Shown: positions 36,245 through 50,688 of the stretch, in pieces
Position numbering within the stretch: the stretch's first letter is position 1
How the letters are laid out: every line of letters begins with the position of its first letter
Source of the DNA: Candidatus Hermodarchaeota archaeon
GTDB lineage: Archaea > Asgardarchaeota > Heimdallarchaeia > Hodarchaeales > Hodarchaeaceae
Assembly: GCA_048886185.1 (NCBI GenBank)
Contig: JBHLKY010000001.1
Coordinates: forward strand, 130,436-194,435
Length of the DNA: 64,000 nucleotides
Direction: 5' to 3'
Made by a program: the position numbers and the translations under genes
The notes under the pieces: generated by a model
Seen by the model: the letters and a program-made list of their open reading frames with translations, nothing else
The model's database searches: none
Told to the model about the DNA's origin: nothing

Positions 36245-38422
36245 ATGAAACAGAAGATTCAAAGATCAGAAAAAGTAATCGAGAATTATTTTCCATTCTC
36301 AAAGGTCAATGAAATTGCCTACAGAGAGAGTAATGCGAAGAGGTACTATCGTCCTGTTCTAACTCTGCATAAGTGGTTTGCTCGCCGATTAGGTTCTGTT
36401 TTTAGATCTATTCTCATCTATTCTTCACTTTCCTCAGTAAAAAACGATGTTAAAGCTGTCAATGCTTCGTACGAAGACAATATCCTGGCATTGGAACATG
36501 ATTTTTGGAATCTGTATTTACAAGAACATAATTTTGAAGATATTATTGTTATAGATCCTTTTATGGGAGGGGGGACAACAATTATTGAAGCCATTCGTTT
36601 AGGCTTTGGTGGGATTATAGGTGGTGATTTGAATCCTGTCGCTTGGTTTGCAGTAAAAAAAGAGCTAGAAGAAGTTAATATTAATAGTTTAAAGGTAGAA
36701 TTTGAGAAATTATCATCCAAACTTAAACATGAGCTTTCTATATATTATAAAACACAATGTGGTCATTGTTCGAATCATGCGGATGTAATGTACTTTTTCT
36801 GGGTAAAAGAGATTCAATGTGAGCATTGTTCAACAACTACTCCCCTTTTCCGAAGTTATTTGTTTGCTTATGATCGTAAGGATCCTTCATCAGGTCATTT
36901 TATTTGTCCTAAATGTCAAACCATTTTTCACGGAATTTTTAAAGAGGATCTTTACTGTCCTGAATGTAGCTGGATCTTTGATCCATTTTCTTTTGTTGTT
37001 AAACGCGGAAAAATTTTTTGTCCCAGCTGTGAACATACAGCTAAAATTGTAGATGTTTGTGCAAAACAGGGAAAGTCCCAGGAAAGATTATATGCTATAG
37101 AATATTATTGTTCTTATTGTAATACACGTGATTACAAAAGAGCTGATATAAATGACCTTGACCTCTATCAACAAGCATCTCATGAATTTAAGATGATTCA
37201 GAAGTTATTACCACTTCCTAACCAAGCTATCCCTATGGGAGCTAAAACCCAGGAATTATTAAATCATCAAATTCTCTTTTTTACCGATATGTTCAATATG
37301 CGTCAACTACTTTCTTTAGGAAAATTATTGAGGGAAATTCTGGAAATTCAAGATCAAAATATAAAGGAATTCTTTCTTATAACATTTTCAACAGCTTTGG
37401 AATATAATAATCTTCTGTGTGAATATCATAGAAAGAACCATTACATCTACAATTTATTTCGAAAACATGCCTTTCCTGCCACATTGAACCCTGTTGAAAA
37501 TAATGTATTTGGTACAGCAAAATTCGGTACAGGAACTTTCAAAAACTTCTTTTCGAAGACCATTCGAATTAAACAATTTTGTAGGAATCCGTACGAATAC
37601 TATATTACTGAGGAAGGGAATACTAACCGCCAATCTATGAAACGTTCAATTAAAGGGAGAGTAGTGTCTTCATATTCCAAGCTCATGCAAGATCCTACAG
37701 AAAATATTTATCTCTATTGCCATTCTTCTGACCAAATTCAGGTTCCAGATAATAGTGTGAACTTAGTAGTAACAGATCCTCCCTATTACGATAATGTTCA
37801 GTATTCTGAGTTATCAGATTTTTATTACGTTTGGTTGAGATTAGGACTTAAGGATCATTATCCCTGGTTTAGTTCAACATTAACTCCCAAAAAAGAAGAG
37901 ATTGTAAAAAATATAAAAATTGGAAAAAAAAGTAGTGATTATCAACAGGGCTTAAAAGAAGTATTTTCAGAGATTTCCAGAGTCTTGAAAACTGATGGTT
38001 TGTTAATATTTTCATTTCATCACAAAGAATTACAGGCTTGGACTTCAATAATACAGAGTTTATTGGATATTAATTTCTACATCACAGCAGTTTATCCTGT
38101 GCGTGGTGAAATGGAGACCAGTACACAGATTCGAGGTAAAAAAAGTATTGAATTTGACGTCATCTTTGTCTGCAAGAAACGTTTGGGATATTCTCACAAA
38201 AACATGTGGGAAAGACTTCTTCCTAAGATTAAGAAGAGTATAAAGGACAAAATAACCCTTCTGAGTAATACTGGTGACTTTCTTTCAAAGGAAGATCAAT
38301 TTGTAGTTCAACTTGGTGTTGGATTAAAGTATTTCACAAAATACTATCCTAATATTACCTTTAATTCAAAATCTTTGGCTTTAAAGGAAGCTTTAGAAAA
38401 TCTCGCATCGCTCACTTATTGA
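36245..38422 (+). CDS. paralog of 32323-34443: Zn-ribbon adenine-specific DNA methyltransferase (COG1743/DUF1156-like)
   Basis: Colinear with 32323-34443: 'YRPVLTLHKWFARRLG', 'IDPFMGGGTTIIEAIRLG', six CxxC pairs, 'VVTDPPYYDNVQYSELSDFYYVWLR', 'FSFHH'. Confidence 0.7.
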   Translation: MKQKIQRSEKVIENYFPFSKVNEIAYRESNAKRYYRPVLTLHKWFARRLGSVFRSILIYSSLSSVKNDVKAVNASYEDNILALEHDFWNLYLQEHNFEDIIVIDPFMGGGTTIIEAIRLGFGGIIGGDLNPVAWFAVKKELEEVNINSLKVEFEKLSSKLKHELSIYYKTQCGHCSNHADVMYFFWVKEIQCEHCSTTTPLFRSYLFAYDRKDPSSGHFICPKCQTIFHGIFKEDLYCPECSWIFDPFSFVVKRGKIFCPSCEHTAKIVDVCAKQGKSQERLYAIEYYCSYCNTRDYKRADINDLDLYQQASHEFKMIQKLLPLPNQAIPMGAKTQELLNHQILFFTDMFNMRQLLSLGKLLREILEIQDQNIKEFFLITFSTALEYNNLLCEYHRKNHYIYNLFRKHAFPATLNPVENNVFGTAKFGTGTFKNFFSKTIRIKQFCRNPYEYYITEEGNTNRQSMKRSIKGRVVSSYSKLMQDPTENIYLYCHSSDQIQVPDNSVNLVVTDPPYYDNVQYSELSDFYYVWLRLGLKDHYPWFSSTLTPKKEEIVKNIKIGKKSSDYQQGLKEVFSEISRVLKTDGLLIFSFHHKELQAWTSIIQSLLDINFYITAVYPVRGEMETSTQIRGKKSIEFDVIFVCKKRLGYSHKNMWERLLPKIKKSIKDKITLLSNTGDFLSKEDQFVVQLGVGLKYFTKYYPNITFNSKSLALKEALENLASLTY

Positions 38423-43769: not shown

Positions 43770-43949
43770 TTAATGTAATTTATATTTGTGAGCTCGCTGT
43801 ATCCCCATATGAGTCATTAGATTGATGATCTGATGAAATTTAAGTTTTTTTATGCTCTCTTCCCTTTCTTGTAGGATCAATTCTGTGAAATATTCTTTCA
43901 TAGCTGGTACGAGATCATGAACCACGTTTGAATTCGGGTTTCTAATCAT
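43770..43949 (-). pseudogene. 59-aa remnant duplicating the C-terminus of 43990-45063
   Basis: Minus-strand translation 'MIRNPNSNVVHDLVPAMKEYFTELILQEREESIKKLKFHQIINLMTHMGIQRAHKYKLH' aligns with the parent C-terminus 'IEVAHDLAPAMKEYFIDLSIQGQREKLKRLEFHRVINYYTQMGIRRARAYRLP'. About 65% nucleotide similarity over roughly 100 nt. Confidence 0.5.
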
Positions 43950-43989
43950 TTAGGGGTCAACAGATGATGGTTTCGCCTTATTCGAAATA

Positions 43990-45063
43990 TTATTCCTTTT
44001 TCTGAGGCAATCTATATGCTCTTGCTCGTCTGATGCCCATTTGTGTATAATAATTGATAACACGGTGAAATTCTAACCTTTTTAATTTCTCTCGTTGGCC
44101 CTGAATTGATAAATCAATGAAATATTCTTTCATTGCAGGAGCCAAATCATGAGCAACTTCAATAGGTATTTTGTTCCATTTTCTCAGAAATTTTTGTAAT
44201 TTTAAGAGTTTTCGGGGATTATTAATCACAAATACGTTTTCTTCAGTTGTTATGAAATCCATTGCTTGCATAGATTGAGCTCCAAACACAAGACGAGCGG
44301 GAAAGGCTTCAAAAAGCAACTGACAATAGTTCACAATAACAGCTGAAAATGCACTTATGAGGGCTGAATCTAGCGGAGAATCATACTCTAAATGGATTGG
44401 TACTCCTGCACTTGAGTGAATGACTCCCCAAGGACGAGACGGTGTTAATGTTGAAAAATGAGTTTCGAACAGCTCTCTCAACAAGGCATGAAAAAACAGC
44501 AATTCTTCAAAACTTAATGCAGAGAAGGAACATTCACCATTCCCCACTGTTACATTTTCATTATAGGTTACTGCATTTATTGCTTCTTGGAAAAGCTGAT
44601 CTACGATGTTTTTATCATGATTATTTTCTTCTTGTGAGTAAAATTGTGAATAGATGACTGAAGCACCCCCTGCAAGAATACTCCTCATTTCATCCCAAGG
44701 AGCAGTTTCTAATTCTATTCGACTCATTAGTCTTGTCGTGACAAGAGGGTCAGAAATAACAATGCTGAATCTCTTCAATTTACTAGATAGATTTACAATC
44801 ATAATTTCTCGTGCTTGACTTGGGTGAGGACGAGGATATCTTAACCTTACAATTCCAATTCCCTGACCCCACAATTCTGCTCCTAATCTACTGACAGATC
44901 TCACGAAATCGAGTGTTTGTTCAAGCTTATCTTGGTTGAGATCACCAAAATGCCATTTCACTTCGTTTTCACTAGTTAGAATTGCCCAATTATTGAGATA
45001 TAAACGACGCTGATTAGTAATCATTATAGAATGTTCTCCATGTCTGTTTTTTCTAATGTTCAA
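43990..45063 (-). CDS. hypothetical protein (357 aa), no recognisable motif
   Basis: Long ORF in AT-rich DNA and last gene of the minus-strand operon 46814-43990. The C-terminal paralogous remnant downstream argues it is a real protein family. Confidence 0.5.
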   Translation of the reverse strand: MNIRKNRHGEHSIMITNQRRLYLNNWAILTSENEVKWHFGDLNQDKLEQTLDFVRSVSRLGAELWGQGIGIVRLRYPRPHPSQAREIMIVNLSSKLKRFSIVISDPLVTTRLMSRIELETAPWDEMRSILAGGASVIYSQFYSQEENNHDKNIVDQLFQEAINAVTYNENVTVGNGECSFSALSFEELLFFHALLRELFETHFSTLTPSRPWGVIHSSAGVPIHLEYDSPLDSALISAFSAVIVNYCQLLFEAFPARLVFGAQSMQAMDFITTEENVFVINNPRKLLKLQKFLRKWNKIPIEVAHDLAPAMKEYFIDLSIQGQREKLKRLEFHRVINYYTQMGIRRARAYRLPQKKE

Positions 45064-45183
45064 TCGTTATCTTTAGTACTTCAATGAGGGGACTAAAAAG
45101 GATTTATTTATTAATTATGTAAAATGTAAATAGTAAATTTTCGCAGAATGTTTAGAATTATTTTGTTGCTTTCAATCTTTTTA

Positions 45184-46461
45184 TTAAGACAGAAATAATA
45201 TATCATATATTAAGGTGCCATAATAATTTTCAGTTTCAATTATGGTGATTTGCAGTAAATCCATTGCAGCTTTTTTTCCAACTATCTTAGATAGATTATG
45301 TAAAAGTGAGTCCAAAAATGGGAGGAATGCGTTTTGAAAAAGTGGTGTCATTATTTGTGGGCGAGTATTTAATACAGCTTCTAATTTTTCAAAATATAAG
45401 CCTTTCATATAATTTTCTACAAGCTTAGCAATAGTTATTATCCTTCCTTTGTTTTTTGCCCGTTCTAGCTCATGATTAAATATTGTCTCAAAGATTGTGA
45501 AAGTGAAATTTTCTCCAAACATTTTAACCAGTTGGAGGCGAAATAACTTTAGAAATTCTTCAAAAACAATTAGTAATAAACCAGAATCAGACAAGAGGCT
45601 GATATAACCACTAATTGACAGATATCGAAATAGTTGGATCATCCTCATTTTTTCTTGTGTTGTTAAATTCGCAGAGAGAGACTTAATTGAATGTCTTCCA
45701 TCAATTTTTTGAGTAATCTTAATTCCCCATTCTCCCCAATGTTTAAAAATTGTCTGATAGGCCATTCCTTGTTCTAATATGATACCGATATGAGCTTTTT
45801 CGATTTTAAAAATATCAGTGTTTTTTATTGCAATATCCACTGATTTTAAGTATCCTATCTCTTTTAATATTGCTGTTCTAGCAATACAATATTCTAATGG
45901 CCAATTAATTTTGCGAGAGATTTCTATAATAGCTAATTTCCCATCAAATAATTCCAATAGGGGTTTGTACTTAGATGGGATCTCTATTCCTCTATTTTTA
46001 TAAGCTTCATCTTTTATTTGTTTGAAAATAAGGTTCTCATCTAAATGAGATAGCATAAATTTTCGAGTTAATTCACGAAAAGGAATGTATCTCTGGGTTT
46101 GTATATTTTGTTCTTTGATTTCCTTTAAATAATTAAATTCGAAAATATCAATGATTGCTCTAATTTTTTCCATTAAAATTTGACTTTCATTATCTACTAC
46201 TAAAATAGCTTCGATTTCTTGACCACGTTCAAACATTATTTTCTTTCCTTCCCTTTCAATCACATTTAATGTTCCACTCTCGCTTGATATATTATCCATC
46301 ATACTATCAGAAAATGTCGAAATAGCATTTACCAATCCTCCTAAAATAATGGAATCAGTACGAGGAGCATAACTACTAAATTTAATGTCAAAAATTGTCA
46401 AACCAGAGATGTTTAACAAAAAATAAATGAGACCAGCTTTATCTAGGGATTCATTACTCAT
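45184..46461 (-). CDS. hypothetical protein (425 aa) with a possible N-terminal longin/roadblock-like alpha/beta module
   Basis: N-terminal beta-beta-alpha-beta-beta-beta-alpha pattern ('GLIYFLL','GLTIFDIKF','SIILGGLVNAISTF','TLNVIERE','KKIMFERG','IEAILVVD','SQILMEKIRAIIDIF'). The rest is helical. Confidence 0.45.
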   Translation of the reverse strand: MSNESLDKAGLIYFLLNISGLTIFDIKFSSYAPRTDSIILGGLVNAISTFSDSMMDNISSESGTLNVIEREGKKIMFERGQEIEAILVVDNESQILMEKIRAIIDIFEFNYLKEIKEQNIQTQRYIPFRELTRKFMLSHLDENLIFKQIKDEAYKNRGIEIPSKYKPLLELFDGKLAIIEISRKINWPLEYCIARTAILKEIGYLKSVDIAIKNTDIFKIEKAHIGIILEQGMAYQTIFKHWGEWGIKITQKIDGRHSIKSLSANLTTQEKMRMIQLFRYLSISGYISLLSDSGLLLIVFEEFLKLFRLQLVKMFGENFTFTIFETIFNHELERAKNKGRIITIAKLVENYMKGLYFEKLEAVLNTRPQIMTPLFQNAFLPFLDSLLHNLSKIVGKKAAMDLLQITIIETENYYGTLIYDILFLS

Positions 46462-46814
46462 TTTGGTGCATCATCCAATTTGACGGGACTTGCGGGTTTT
46501 TTTGCTTTAGTTTTCAGCTCATCAAAAAATACTGAAATCTTCCATAATCCAAAGAAAACAAACCCAAATCCTATACTAATCAATACAAGAAAAACTAATT
46601 GTACTAAAGGATTCCAAATTGGATCCTGATAGTTTAAAATTGAGATAATTGTTTGAGAAAGCAAACCACATGAAATAAAAAATGCTCCTAGGCTAATAAT
46701 CTTATTACTGGTTCCAAAAATTCCTTCTAACCGAAATTGTTTAGCAGTTGTAACAAGACTAATCATCATGCAGCATCCATAAAGCATACCACGAATAATG
46801 TCATATTCTTGCAT
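46458..46814 (-). CDS. small 3-TM membrane protein
   Basis: 118 aa. It overlaps the downstream gene by 4 nt. Confidence 0.45.
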   Translation of the reverse strand: MQEYDIIRGMLYGCCMMISLVTTAKQFRLEGIFGTSNKIISLGAFFISCGLLSQTIISILNYQDPIWNPLVQLVFLVLISIGFGFVFFGLWKISVFFDELKTKAKKPASPVKLDDAPK

Positions 46815-47009: not shown

Positions 47010-48962
47010 CTAATGATGATTAAAGTACTTGTGGTGAGTTTCTAATTGTTTGATTACTTCTTTTTTAAATAAATCAGGTAATCTATAAAGCTCAAAAATT
47101 AAATCATCTAATGAACAACATAATTCTGATATTTTTCCTTTCTCAGTACAGAATGGACATAATTGTAAGAAAATCTCTTTAGAAGATGAAAACTGCTCAA
47201 GTGACTTGCTAAGGGAAGATACTTCTTCTTCGATTGAAGTGCAAATATCATTTTTCAAAGGATTAAGTCGAGGTAGGGGTATCAACCCTATATCTGCTGG
47301 CGGAACAGCTGCTGTTAGGTTAATCTGATGGATAAACCAGTTTATTAGAAGAGAGTTAAAAATTCCTAATAATAAATTAGTAGAAACATATATTGAAGTC
47401 GAATTACAATCTAAAAGAAAATAATTCAAGTTATTTTCGACCCAAATTCTGTTGTGAGTTTTAAGGTGGTCTTCCGAGATCAAACCAGAAACAACTCTAC
47501 GTAATTGTTCTCTAGCAGTAATTCGTTGGAACACAATTCGGGGAGTATTGGCGTGCTTTTTTCGAAAGATAGTGTTATCCATTGATGATGGTTGTAAGTA
47601 CCAACGAGGCTTATGGCGATTTTCTGATAGATTGATTATAAAAGGATGGACATTCTTCCCATTTAATACAATCTCGAAATTTGAAATGTTATCTTTTTCA
47701 AGAATCTTTTTATAGTAAAAAGGTCGGATTTTGCTATCAGCAGGTCTTATTTCTCCGCTTTGAATTTTGTATACATCTTTTAAACAGATAGAATTCTTTC
47801 TAATAAGCCTAATTATTTCAAATGTTTTAGGGTATGGTGAAGGAATAATTTTATCCTGAAAAAGTAGAAGGGGGGTTGAAATGTCACCTTCAGTAATTTC
47901 ACCTAGGACTAATTCTTCTATATTACAGGTTCGTATTATATGAGTTTGCTCTTTTTCTTCACCCCCTTTCTTCTTCTGTAAAACTAATAAGCAGGTTCCT
48001 TGAAGAACATTAGGAAAGATATGAGTTCGACTTACAAAATCAACCACTTCGCGTAAATGGAATTGCGAGAGAAGGAATTTACGAACCTCTACACTATAAT
48101 AATCAGTCAATACTGAATTTGAAGTTAAGAAAGTTGCGATTCCATCTGAAGTCAAAAGCTCATTCACACGGGTTAAAAAAAGGTGATAAAGATTAAATCG
48201 ATTAATAAATATCTGTTTTTGGTATAATTGGCGATAAATTTGGTTATCTTTTGATGAAATATCTTTTGTTACATAGGGTGGATTACATAAAACGAGATTA
48301 AAACCTTTATTTTCATGATTAAAAATTCTTGGAAATTCCTTATACCAATGAAAAAATTGATTTTCGTTAATACTTAATTCTTCTTTCTGGAGTAATTCAA
48401 GAAATCTTTTTTGATCTTCAGGTTTAGTACTTCCAAGTAAGACATTACCATGCCTAATCTGGTGATTTAAAGTGTTCTGCACTTCTTTGAGCTTATTTTG
48501 AGTTAAATTGGATTCATTTTGTCCTAATAACCATTTTTTTAGCTCCTTTTGGCAAGTATGAATTGCTTTAGGATTAAAATCTACTCCATGTAAATTGTTC
48601 TGGATTATCTGAAATCTAACATCTGTTGAATCTGAGGAATTACAATGAATTGCTTCTAGAAATTTACCTGCTTCTAAAAGAAAAACTCCATTTCCAACTC
48701 CAAGATCGAGAATTTTGATATCCTTTATTAGCTCTTGCATTTGTAGGCGTGTTGAATAATTAATGGTATCTTTAGGAATTTTTGATGCTGTTACCTGTGA
48801 TAAGAATTTCAATAATAATTTTTTAGGTAATCGTTGGTGAAAAAATTGTTGGAATGCCGACCAGACCACAAATTGAGCTAGTATGGTTGGTGTGTAATAG
48901 GTACCAAGCGATTCTTTCTTATTTGAGGATTTCACTTGTAACACCTGGTGAGACCCGTTCAT
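47010..48962 (-). CDS. gamma-class N6-adenine DNA methyltransferase
   Basis: 'LGTYYTPTILAQFVV', motif I 'ILDLGVGNGVFLLEAGKF', motif IV 'LVLCNPPYVTKD', then a roughly 330-aa C-terminal region with a 'CPFCTEKGKISELCC' ribbon. Confidence 0.75.
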   Translation of the reverse strand: MNGSHQVLQVKSSNKKESLGTYYTPTILAQFVVWSAFQQFFHQRLPKKLLLKFLSQVTASKIPKDTINYSTRLQMQELIKDIKILDLGVGNGVFLLEAGKFLEAIHCNSSDSTDVRFQIIQNNLHGVDFNPKAIHTCQKELKKWLLGQNESNLTQNKLKEVQNTLNHQIRHGNVLLGSTKPEDQKRFLELLQKEELSINENQFFHWYKEFPRIFNHENKGFNLVLCNPPYVTKDISSKDNQIYRQLYQKQIFINRFNLYHLFLTRVNELLTSDGIATFLTSNSVLTDYYSVEVRKFLLSQFHLREVVDFVSRTHIFPNVLQGTCLLVLQKKKGGEEKEQTHIIRTCNIEELVLGEITEGDISTPLLLFQDKIIPSPYPKTFEIIRLIRKNSICLKDVYKIQSGEIRPADSKIRPFYYKKILEKDNISNFEIVLNGKNVHPFIINLSENRHKPRWYLQPSSMDNTIFRKKHANTPRIVFQRITAREQLRRVVSGLISEDHLKTHNRIWVENNLNYFLLDCNSTSIYVSTNLLLGIFNSLLINWFIHQINLTAAVPPADIGLIPLPRLNPLKNDICTSIEEEVSSLSKSLEQFSSSKEIFLQLCPFCTEKGKISELCCSLDDLIFELYRLPDLFKKEVIKQLETHHKYFNHH

Positions 48963-48977
48963 TTCAACAATAATTAT

Positions 48978-49778
48978 TTATAGAAAGCTGTCTAGATTGA
49001 TGATTTGACTCCGATTAATATATTCAAGTCGAGATTGAAAAGATTTGGCATTTTCCAAATTCTTCTGAGACTCAAGAACATATTCTGGATTGATTTCAAT
49101 CCCTAGATATTTGCGATCGAGGAGTTTAGCTACGATTGCAGTTGTTCCTACTCCAAGAAAAGGGTCGAAAACTAGGTCTCCTTCATCAGAAGATGTCAGA
49201 ATTATCCTTTCCATGAAAGTTAAAGGTAATTGAGTAGGGTGTTTATCATGTCTCTTCTTTCTATGCTTGATTCTATAAATATTAGTCCAGATATCTGAAA
49301 ATGGCTTTTCTATCAAAGGAGTATTGATTCGTTTATCAATACATTGTGCTCGTGCGCAATGAGTCCAATTATGCTTAGAAGTTAATTTGTTGAACGTGTA
49401 CTTCTTGTTTGATTTTGTGTAGAAAAGTAATGAATAATGAGCAGGCATTATCTTACCACGGGGAGCTGATAAAGCATCCCAAGCGATGGTATTTTGTCGA
49501 AATAAGAATTTATCTAAAAAAACTGCATGATTAATAGCCCATTTTGGAAGATTTAATAGATAGAACGATCCGTCTGGCTTTAATAATCGTACTATTTCAA
49601 TAATCCATTTTTCAGCCCATTTAAGATAATTTTGAGTGGTAGTGGAATCATCATATATACCATAATCTTTCTCCAGATTATAAGGAGGATCTGCAAAAGC
49701 TAAATCGACTATGCCTGAGGGAAGGTTTTTCATTTCTTCAATGCAATCCCCATTGATAATTCGATTTTCAAAACTCAT
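48978..49778 (-). CDS. beta-class DNA methyltransferase (N4-C or N6-A)
   Basis: Motif IV 'AFADPPYNLEKDYG' is N-terminal. 'FSDIWTNIY', 'HPTQLPLTFMERIILTSSDEGDLVFDPFLGVGTTAIVA' (motif I) is C-terminal. Confidence 0.8.
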   Translation of the reverse strand: MSFENRIINGDCIEEMKNLPSGIVDLAFADPPYNLEKDYGIYDDSTTTQNYLKWAEKWIIEIVRLLKPDGSFYLLNLPKWAINHAVFLDKFLFRQNTIAWDALSAPRGKIMPAHYSLLFYTKSNKKYTFNKLTSKHNWTHCARAQCIDKRINTPLIEKPFSDIWTNIYRIKHRKKRHDKHPTQLPLTFMERIILTSSDEGDLVFDPFLGVGTTAIVAKLLDRKYLGIEINPEYVLESQKNLENAKSFQSRLEYINRSQIINLDSFL

Positions 49779-50688
49779 AAGGATTCACTCCATCATAAGG
49801 AGCAAGAAGTAGAGTTGATGTAGAGGTGCATGATAAGTCAACTAATCGTTTTAAGACTGAAGAAAGTAGCGGATTTACTGTAATCAGTTGATTAGAAGAA
49901 AAATCTGGATGCCAAATGTCTGATAATACCATTCCATTTCTATGTCTAAGGTGTTTTTTTCCGCCATAATCTTTTAGTGGTTTATTACAAAAGGAGCAAA
50001 AACGATATGGTATCCTAACACGATTAATTCTGAATTTTTTAGGAGATTTCACATAATACAAGATACAATTTGCTTCTGATTTGTATTTTCTTGAAACATC
50101 AACATGAGGGATTTCCTCTGAATAAACAATCCAATATTTAAAATAAAGACCTAAATGATTAAGTTTAACACCAAAATAAGGTAAATAACGAGGAATTGAA
50201 TGGATCAAAACATTTCCATTGGATTTTAGAATCCGTAAAGTCTCCTCTAGGTAGCCATAAACTTCTTTTATAAGTGATGAATTAGAAATGTTATGATATG
50301 ACGAAGTATCTTGTTTCTCCTTAAATGTAAATTTTGGAAAAAGAATCCACGTATCAACACTTTGATCCTTAATTTCAGCTAATTTCTTCATTTCAGACGA
50401 TTGTAATACTATAAAGTTTGATGGAATGATATCCTTAACACTGTCCCTTCTATGTTTACGTGCTAGAAAACGTTCCTTTCCTGCCTCAGGATCCTTAATA
50501 TTGTAAACTGCCATCAACTCTGATAATTTGAAGAATCCTTTTACCTTTAAGGGATTTTTAAGCTGTGTTCCATTTTTGTCATACTTTTTTAATAAACCAC
50601 GTTCTATTTGTAGTCGGATGTTCTCCTCCGCATGATTGGAATAAATCACTGCATCTTTCAATGTTATAAAACGATCACGTTTAGGCAT
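49768..50688 (-). CDS. catalytically degenerate paralog of the adjacent beta-class methyltransferase
   Basis: Colinear with 48978-49778: 'VDTWILFPKFTFKE' vs 'VDLAFADPPYNLEK' (DPPY becomes FPKF, nt 50329-50340); 'SDIW' conserved; 'LLLAPYDGVNP' vs 'LVFDPFLGVGT' (FxGxG lost). It overlaps the downstream MTase start by 11 nt. Confidence 0.55.
   Translation of the reverse strand: MPKRDRFITLKDAVIYSNHAEENIRLQIERGLLKKYDKNGTQLKNPLKVKGFFKLSELMAVYNIKDPEAGKERFLARKHRRDSVKDIIPSNFIVLQSSEMKKLAEIKDQSVDTWILFPKFTFKEKQDTSSYHNISNSSLIKEVYGYLEETLRILKSNGNVLIHSIPRYLPYFGVKLNHLGLYFKYWIVYSEEIPHVDVSRKYKSEANCILYYVKSPKKFRINRVRIPYRFCSFCNKPLKDYGGKKHLRHRNGMVLSDIWHPDFSSNQLITVNPLLSSVLKRLVDLSCTSTSTLLLAPYDGVNPYEF

Follow-up and report, generated by a model that had tools for sequence, protein, structure and literature searches.

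Background

What are the genes that lie directly downstream of a DNA methyltransferase cluster in a Hodarchaeales archaeon, and do they have anything to do with methylation? The locus lies in a 64,000-nucleotide (nt) stretch of a Candidatus Hermodarchaeota archaeon genome (assembly GCA_048886185.1, contig JBHLKY010000001.1, positions 130,436 to 194,435). We call this whole stretch the window and count positions within it. Four open reading frames (ORFs) follow three methyltransferase (MTase) genes on the minus strand. A sequence-only reading described the first three as one operon, possibly the effector module of an MTase-linked system, and the fourth as a decayed duplicate of the operon's last gene. 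All four ORFs are present as it described them. We argue here that the locus consists of two independent units, vertically inherited in this archaeon: a membrane protein paired with a 425-amino acid (aa) protein, and a 344-aa protein standing next to the remains of its paralogue. We think it probable that both units encode dimeric longin/roadblock platforms or regulators for small GTPases. The folds, fusions and synteny behind this view were computed, and the function is what we infer from them.

Two conserved units

We mapped the window genes onto 41 related loci, which carry L-numbers below (L001 is the closed genome CP070695 and L014 is CP070760). The first unit begins with TM118 (46458..46814, minus strand), a 118-aa protein with three hydrophobic spans, taken as transmembrane (TM) segments, and a charged C-terminal tail. 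It is followed by gene 2 (45184..46461, minus strand), which encodes the 425-aa protein. The stop of TM118 and the start of gene 2 overlap by 4 nt in the window, and this overlap is present in 7 of 8 loci. TM118 orthologues lie directly upstream of every gene-2 orthologue examined, with identities of 46-73% in alignment and 48-73% by tblastn. Judged on this arrangement, TM118 and gene 2 are a translationally coupled pair.

The second unit is gene 3 (43990..45024, minus strand). Read from a TTG it would span 43990-45063 and encode 357 aa. An ATG at 45024 is indicated as the true start instead, by its homologues, by the NCBI annotation and by a GGAG-like site that is conserved; this gives a 344-aa protein and leaves a spacer of 159 nt between genes 2 and 3. 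An element conserved across gene-3 orthologues, AATAAATAAATC-CTTTTTAGTC (45091..45112, minus strand), lies within about 100 nt upstream of gene 3. It is kept whatever the upstream gene is, be it gene 2 (window, L003), a 1161-aa gene (L001) or MT650 (L011). We regard it as a candidate promoter or 5' region of gene 3, and because it is conserved independently of the upstream gene, gene 3 is probably its own transcription unit.

The idea of a three-gene operon needs correcting. The ORFs are real, and they are better described as a bicistron of the TM118 and 425-aa genes that has been inserted upstream of an independent gene. Across the order, gene 3 is anchored between a geranylgeranyl reductase (GGR) gene on one side and tRNA_edit, NIF3 and acyl-CoA synthetase genes on the other. 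In the closed genome CP070695 unit 1 and gene 3 are 40 kb apart. The two units are separately conserved and adjoin only in this sub-lineage.

Does the neighbourhood nevertheless point to a methylase-linked defence or restriction-like system, with the three genes as its effector module? The proximity is real. That the three upstream genes encode DNA methyltransferases is borne out by Pfam, NCBIfam and PADLOC; the genes in question are co-oriented with them, TM118 following the 650-aa MTase after 195 nt. The close relatives L003, L004 and L033 share the full order of MTases, TM118, 425-aa and 344-aa genes, and an Eco57I-type MTase is found within about 9 kb in L001 and L017 too. Among the 41 loci mapped, however, the full order occurs only in those three and the window. 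GGR directly abuts gene 3, without an MTase, in L018 and L022-L027. The TM118 and 425-aa pair is found at unrelated MTase-free loci (L002, L034-L038, L040). In L014 and L016 the MTase triplet stands between GGR and gene 3 without the first unit at all, so that in L014 it runs straight into gene 3. Nor do the products look like effectors: PADLOC is blank, they show neither motif nor fold of a nuclease, an ATPase or an HNH protein, and the folds described below are longin, roadblock and winged-helix. The families are single- or low-copy, syntenic and conserved like their housekeeping neighbours, unlike patchy defence genes. Since the units occur apart from the MTases and from each other across these loci, the defence-effector reading is unsupported, and the conserved association with MTases that it proposed to look for is not there. 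We consider this explanation highly improbable.

The methylases themselves keep their place in several diverged Hodarchaeales. The triplet (window 47010-50688, minus strand) encodes two N6_N4 MTases, one of 306 aa and degenerate and one of 266 aa, together with a 650-aa Eco57I/N6_Mtase protein that has a TaqI_C domain. It occupies the same slot between GGR and gene 3 in L003 (5705-9397), L014 (6331-9940) and L016 (3270-6801), with 48-76% aa identity, and it is missing from other Hodarchaeales loci. No restriction endonuclease was seen beside it in the loci examined. The triplet looks vertically inherited rather than like a mobile defence island. A fourth methylase-like gene lies no more than 15 kb from the triplet (36245-38422, plus strand); its 725-aa product combines DUF1156 with an N6_N4 MTase domain, and it is syntenic in CP070695 (L001 18794-20962).

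Sequence families and distribution

The absence of any recognisable motif, as reported from the sequence, holds. Pfam (E<=1), NCBIfam and PADLOC assign no family to any of the four products. In PADLOC the proteins of gene 2 and gene 3 (as 344 or 357 aa) are unmatched, and the small ORFs match only weakly and below threshold: TM118 to the 2TM effector PDLC00676 (E 0.054) and the fourth ORF, of 59 codons, to Hp1 PDLC03004 (E 0.0053). There is no Pfam Robl_LC7 or longin sequence match for gene 2 or gene 3, a profile of TM118 finds no family among PDB sequences, and hhalign detects no relation between genes 2 and 3. Weak NuoK/MrpC-like matches of TM118 were not reproduced among its orthologues and we dismiss them as compositional.

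Homologues of the 344-aa and 425-aa proteins come throughout from Asgard metagenome-assembled genomes (MAGs) of the Heimdallarchaeia and Hodarchaeales, at 49-86% identity. Gene 3 has 74 close homologues, all Asgard. Gene 2 has 29-32, all from Heimdall/Hodarchaeales at 49-82% identity, with one family member per genome among the homologues seen, and a profile search for distant relatives found none outside the Hodarchaeales. It is important to realize that the NCBI phylum labels of several JBHL*/ACFF* MAGs conflict with their Hodarchaeales-type gene content and synteny. The labels concerned are those of L021 and L032 (Thorarchaeota), P0031 and P0034 (Odinarchaeota) and P0098 (Hermodarchaeota), and they are unsafe for statements about distribution.

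The predicted fold of gene 2

The AlphaFold2 (AF2) model of gene 2 has a predicted local distance difference test (pLDDT) score of 73 and a predicted TM-score (pTM) of 0.50. By AF2 and DSSP an N-terminal longin comes first; residues 163-220 then form a classical a-b-a-a-b-b winged helix, a similar module follows, and the C-terminus is helical. Comparing the proteins of both units by Foldseek had been proposed as a check, and for gene 2 the answer is uniform: the nine best PDB neighbours are all NPRL2, NPRL3 or Npr2 chains of GATOR1/SEA complexes. Their E-values run from 1e-6 to 7e-4, the alignments cover 331-374 columns and no probability is below 0.99. We verified 8adl_S as yeast Npr2 and the entries 9o5a, 9o5d and 9v0j as containing NPRL2. 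The next matches are isolated longins (TRAPPC, sedlin, AP sigma, Sec22b, VAMP7) at probability 1.0 and TMt 0.4-0.58.

NPRL2 and NPRL3 are subunits of GATOR1/SEACIT, the GTPase-activating protein (GAP) for Rag GTPases, where they form a heterotrimer with DEPDC5. Gene 2 has the domain order of NPRL2/NPRL3 (yeast Npr2/Npr3), longin followed by winged helix and helical C-terminus, and the match covers about 340 of its 425 residues. The differences are substantial as well. Gene 2 is one family per genome and not an NPRL2/NPRL3 pair, no DEPDC5 is evident, and gene 2 is coupled to a small three-TM protein that has no counterpart in GATOR1.

The catalytic longins of this kind carry a GP motif before beta-2. 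It is present in NPRL2, FLCN, SMCR8 and C9orf72 and lacking in NPRL3 and FNIP (PMC12290439). The corresponding residues of gene 2 are S19-G20-L21, with G20 invariant and no proline after it. This would be compatible with a non-catalytic, NPRL3-like subunit. Two positions in turns of the longin sheet may be noted in connection with the catalytic arginine finger of such longins (Arg78 in NPRL2): R70 never varies, and at position 79 there is R in 22 sequences, Q in four and K in one.

The predicted fold of gene 3

The model of gene 3, made from a 68-sequence alignment, is the better of the two at pLDDT 83 and pTM 0.77. AF2 and DSSP give a longin-type domain at residues 14-152 (bb-a-bbb-a plus two helices), a roadblock-type domain at 172-273 (a-bb-a-bbb-a) and a three-helix C-terminal module at 277-337, which is the most confident part (pLDDT 88-97). 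The best structural neighbours are chains of tri-longin Rab guanine nucleotide exchange factors (RabGEFs). Foldseek ranks 1-4 and 6 are 9rs9_B and 9rs8_B (Fuzzy-Inturned), 8zwc_B (BLOC-3) and 9lol_B and 9l0d_A (MON1A-CCZ1), with E from 6e-4 (9rs9_B) to 5e-2 (6e-4 to 8e-3 for the best of them) over 327-346 columns. Further matches are to single roadblock proteins: LAMTOR, dynein LC7 and, from Asgard archaea, those of Prometheoarchaeum and Odin, Roadblock3 among them.

The likeness to the tri-longin RabGEF subunits (Mon1/Ccz1, Fuzzy/Inturned, HPS1/HPS4) goes beyond these matches. Their first domain is longin-type and their second roadblock-type, in the same order as in gene 3. Gene 3 also comes in paralogue pairs, often in tandem, and it has relatives fused to Rab-like GTPases. 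Tandem pairs are found in CP070695, CP070760, L003/4 and L011, and second copies at other loci in four further MAGs. Gene 3 itself belongs to clade 1 of a family that is expanded in the Hodarchaeales. It differs in having the three-helix module in place of the third longin-type domain.

Taken together, the predicted topologies and the structural matches to known members place both proteins in the longin/roadblock superfamily.

A probable connection to small GTPases

An independent tie to GTPases comes from domain fusions in the gene-3 family. An HMMER profile of the 344-aa family, run in full against 1.84 billion representatives, found about 60 more distant clusters, mostly from Hodarchaeales, plus LC_3 and MAGs labelled Thor or Odin. 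Pfam Arf, Ras or Roc domains are present in 7 of the 42 distant members examined. In P0114 the family module is followed by a C-terminal Ras/Roc domain, and in P0157, P0158 and P0161 an N-terminal Arf-like GTPase precedes it. A subfamily of about 550 aa has a C-terminal extension that matches Rab1A, Rab35, Rab6, Rab11, Sec4 and Ypt1/7 at 1e-9 to 1e-5. In some of its members the G1/G3/G4 motifs are canonical, and in others the domain is a degenerate pseudo-GTPase; two members are named 'Rab family GTPase' by NCBI.

The N-terminus of P0161, FHPKSGPKI, also aligns with human NPRL2 at its beta1-beta2 GP motif, FHPTLGPKI; a single BLASTP comparison gives 14/36 identities and E 1e-4. Because of these fusions, the gene-3 module is tied to small GTPases and, more loosely, to GAP-type longins. 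P0158 (785 aa) and P0161 (719 aa) are large Asgard proteins of several domains: an NPRL2-like FHPxxGPKI segment, an Arf-like GTPase, a second GP-motif segment and then the gene-3 family module. The N-terminal segments of these two proteins have no Pfam match, and only the short BLASTP match to the GP-motif region of NPRL2 was found.

Several points weigh against a role in GTPase control. The gene-2 model is moderately confident, with residues 29-67 below pLDDT 50. Full-length TM-scores are low, about 0.2, for gene 2 and gene 3 alike, as expected if the inter-domain geometry of the models differs or is uncertain. The tri-longin match of gene 3 is modest (best E 6e-4, probability 0.89), and its AF2 model has two alpha/beta domains and not the three of a tri-longin protein. 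The GP motif that catalytic GAP longins carry is missing from gene 2. At the sequence level we found no tie to any eukaryotic family for either protein: Pfam NPR2 (PF06218), NPR3 (PF03666), Mon1, CCZ1, Fuz and Robl_LC7 are unmatched, profiles of gene 2 and gene 3 retrieve nothing from PDB sequences (for gene 2, no NPRL chain), and hhalign gives the gene-2 profile a probability of 0.13 against human NPRL2. Finally, neither the 64-kb window nor any of the loci examined for the purpose (L002, L040, L041) contains a small-GTPase gene.

Could the folds be right and the role lie elsewhere? Gene 2 might, for instance, be a membrane-tethered winged-helix transcription regulator that is released from TM118, and gene 3 might serve membrane or cytoskeletal complexes as a scaffold or adaptor, in the manner of SNARE longins and dynein LC7. 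The classical winged helix of gene 2 and the similar module that follows it suit this idea, as do the lack of a GP motif and of an adjacent GTPase gene, and longin and roadblock domains do have roles outside GTPase control in eukaryotes (PMC10933270). The full-length structural neighbours of gene 2 are, however, exclusively NPRL2/3, with no transcription factors among them, and what is invariant in its putative recognition helix is W, P, Y and R, set in a hydrophobic context. The gene-3 module is repeatedly fused with Rab- or Arf-like GTPase domains. Asgard GTPases and their regulators are generally not found in operons (PMC10933270), so the lack of GTPase adjacency carries little weight. We therefore hold a role outside GTPase control to be rather unlikely, if worth keeping in mind.

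We continue to favor platforms for small GTPases, and the following scheme would fit the data. TM118 would tether the gene-2 protein, probably as a dimer, at the membrane, where the longin platform could engage a Rag/Arf-like GTPase. The models for the gene-3 protein would be Mon1-Ccz1, Fuzzy-Inturned, BLOC-3 and Ragulator: on this analogy it would form a longin/roadblock platform as a homo- or heterodimer. Its partner would be a Rab/Arf-like GTPase whose gene lies elsewhere, and the platform would influence where that GTPase is located or which nucleotide state it is in. A GAP or guanine nucleotide exchange activity of gene 2 or gene 3 is likewise putative. In the present lineage, unit 1 came to be inserted between the methylase cluster and unit 2, and the tandem paralogue of unit 2 was lost save for its last 50 or so codons.

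The 59-codon ORF

What, then, is the fourth ORF (43770..43949, minus strand)? It had been described as a paralog of the C-terminus of gene 3 left by tandem duplication and decay. The similarity survives formal alignment of both protein and DNA: 28 of 50 residues (56%) are identical to residues 303-352 of the 357-aa version of its neighbour (BLASTP, E 2e-19), and the DNA alignment with gene 3 includes an identical run of 19 nt. So the homology and the lost tandem duplicate both stand. The ORF is not a copy of the adjacent gene's end, though; it is the end of a different, old paralogue.

This paralogue, which we call paralogue 2, is a full-length same-strand tandem gene in L001 and L014, about 64% identical to gene 3. 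It lies between gene 3 and the tRNA_edit side, the very position that the 59-codon ORF occupies in the window. It is inverted in L011 and frameshifted in L003/4. The 59-aa product is identical to the paralogue-2 C-termini of relatives at 40-45 of 50 positions (80-90%), and at the DNA level it shares 80% identity with the final 150 nt of the L001 and L003 copies of paralogue 2. Because of its location, and because it is closer to paralogue 2 than to gene 3, we read the ORF as what a deletion left of paralogue 2 and not as a recent partial duplication. Nor does 'decay' describe it well. The duplication is ancient, the loss came by deletion, and the retained codons are not degraded: over 50 codons the proportion of nonsynonymous differences (pN) is 0.07-0.11, while that of synonymous ones (pS) is saturated at 0.6-0.9, the same as in comparisons of intact orthologues. 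On these alignments the 59-codon ORF, which encodes the C-terminal helical module, is the relic of a deletion of about 285 codons in an ancient tandem paralogue, truncated but not degraded.

Two other origins were rejected. The same structure, including the truncation, is found in five independent assemblies (NCBI GCA_048938455.1, Logan SRR30758825-29), and this agreement rules out an assembly artefact. Read-through from gene 3 is ruled out by a different frame and by a stop immediately before the ATG of the ORF.

A relic of this kind might still be expressed, as a micro-protein consisting of the three-helix module of paralogue 2 and kept because its partner persists. The ORF is intact and has an ATG, and its pN against a saturated pS does not exceed that of intact orthologues. 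Both of its flanks have been deleted, about 285 codons upstream and a 54-aa gene downstream, and the ORF itself was kept. In L012 an independent rearrangement likewise retained the paralogue-2 C-terminus, there in a hybrid gene, and the three-helix module is the part of the gene-3 model that is predicted best. Set against this, a recent deletion would also yield a low pN, and the comparison covers only 50 codons. Before the ORF we saw neither a Shine-Dalgarno-like site nor a conserved element, and some annotators (L005, L007) leave it uncalled. At two sites that are conserved elsewhere it alone is changed: DLAPAM has an A to V substitution and RARKY an R to H. We rate an expressed micro-protein as less likely than not.

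Related rearrangements are found around paralogue 2 elsewhere. Many Hodarchaeales have a conserved 54-aa gene between paralogue 2 and tRNA_edit with a zinc-ribbon-like CxxxxH...CxxC pattern (L001 12223-12387 and L003 13636-13800, both minus strand). It is frameshifted in L013 and deleted in the window (between 43704 and 43769), which therefore has a second deletion flanking the 59-codon ORF. The L012 gene (188-1216, P0007) is a single-copy hybrid. Its first 290 or so residues are of the gene-3 (paralogue-1) type, with 78% identity to gene 3, its last 45 or so are of the paralogue-2 type, and the switch falls in the conserved APAMK(E/D)YF stretch (APAMKEYF). It apparently arose by unequal crossover between the tandem paralogues. 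In L003 (12582-13602) and L004 (7509-8529), the closest relative with both copies, paralogue 2 (P0068) is split into two frames by a frameshift near RLQKF. This suggests that paralogue 2 is decaying there too, or that a sequencing error is common to both assemblies of the same sample.

Relation to known Asgard longin and roadblock proteins

NPRL2-like longin proteins, detected by sequence, have been reported from most Thor MAGs and from a few Loki ones (Liu et al., bioRxiv 10.1101/2020.10.19.343400), and FLCN/SMCR8-type longins with a GP motif and an arginine finger have been reported from Heimdallarchaeia (Traffic 2025, PMC12290439). Gene 2 resembles them in its GAP-complex-like longin architecture and in its proposed Rag/Arf-like GTPase partners. 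It differs in having no sequence match, no GP motif and a coupled TM partner.

Asgard roadblock and longin domains are known both as stand-alone proteins and fused to Rag/Arf/Rab-like GTPases (Tran et al. 2024, PMC10933270). The gene-3 family is comparable with these proteins and with platforms of the MglA/MglB type: its members are either stand-alone or GTPase-fused, and regulators of this kind generally lie outside the operons of their GTPases. What sets it apart is a fixed unit of about 330 aa, longin plus roadblock plus helical module, which is fused whole in distant relatives and stands alone here.

We place both families with this known Asgard kind of protein and not within the eukaryotic families, because membership of NPR2/NPR3 fails at the sequence level and because gene 3 has two longin-type domains, not three. 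Nowhere in the literature we searched did we find tri-longin proteins or Mon1/Ccz1 homologues connected to Asgard archaea. A bolder view can be stated. The gene-3 family would be an archaeal forerunner of the tri-longin RabGEFs, its paralogues forming a heterodimer on Rab-like GTPases of the Hodarchaeales. TM118 with the 425-aa protein would be anchored in the membrane and would regulate a Rag/Arf-like GTPase there, as an NPRL2/3-type counterpart of GATOR1. We present this as a speculation that is unlikely to be right.

Conclusions

One false lead has been removed: these genes are not a new methylase-associated defence effector. What the locus offers instead are two candidates. One is an NPRL2/3-like protein, a sequence orphan that extends across the Hodarchaeales and has a membrane partner of its own; the other is a longin-roadblock family with Rab- and Arf-fused relatives. 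Longin and roadblock platforms together with small GTPases organise membrane identity and nutrient signalling in eukaryotes, and the timing of their origin is central to eukaryogenesis. If the bolder view were true, two hallmark modules of eukaryotic endolysosomal GTPase control would already be recognisable in the closest archaeal relatives of eukaryotes.

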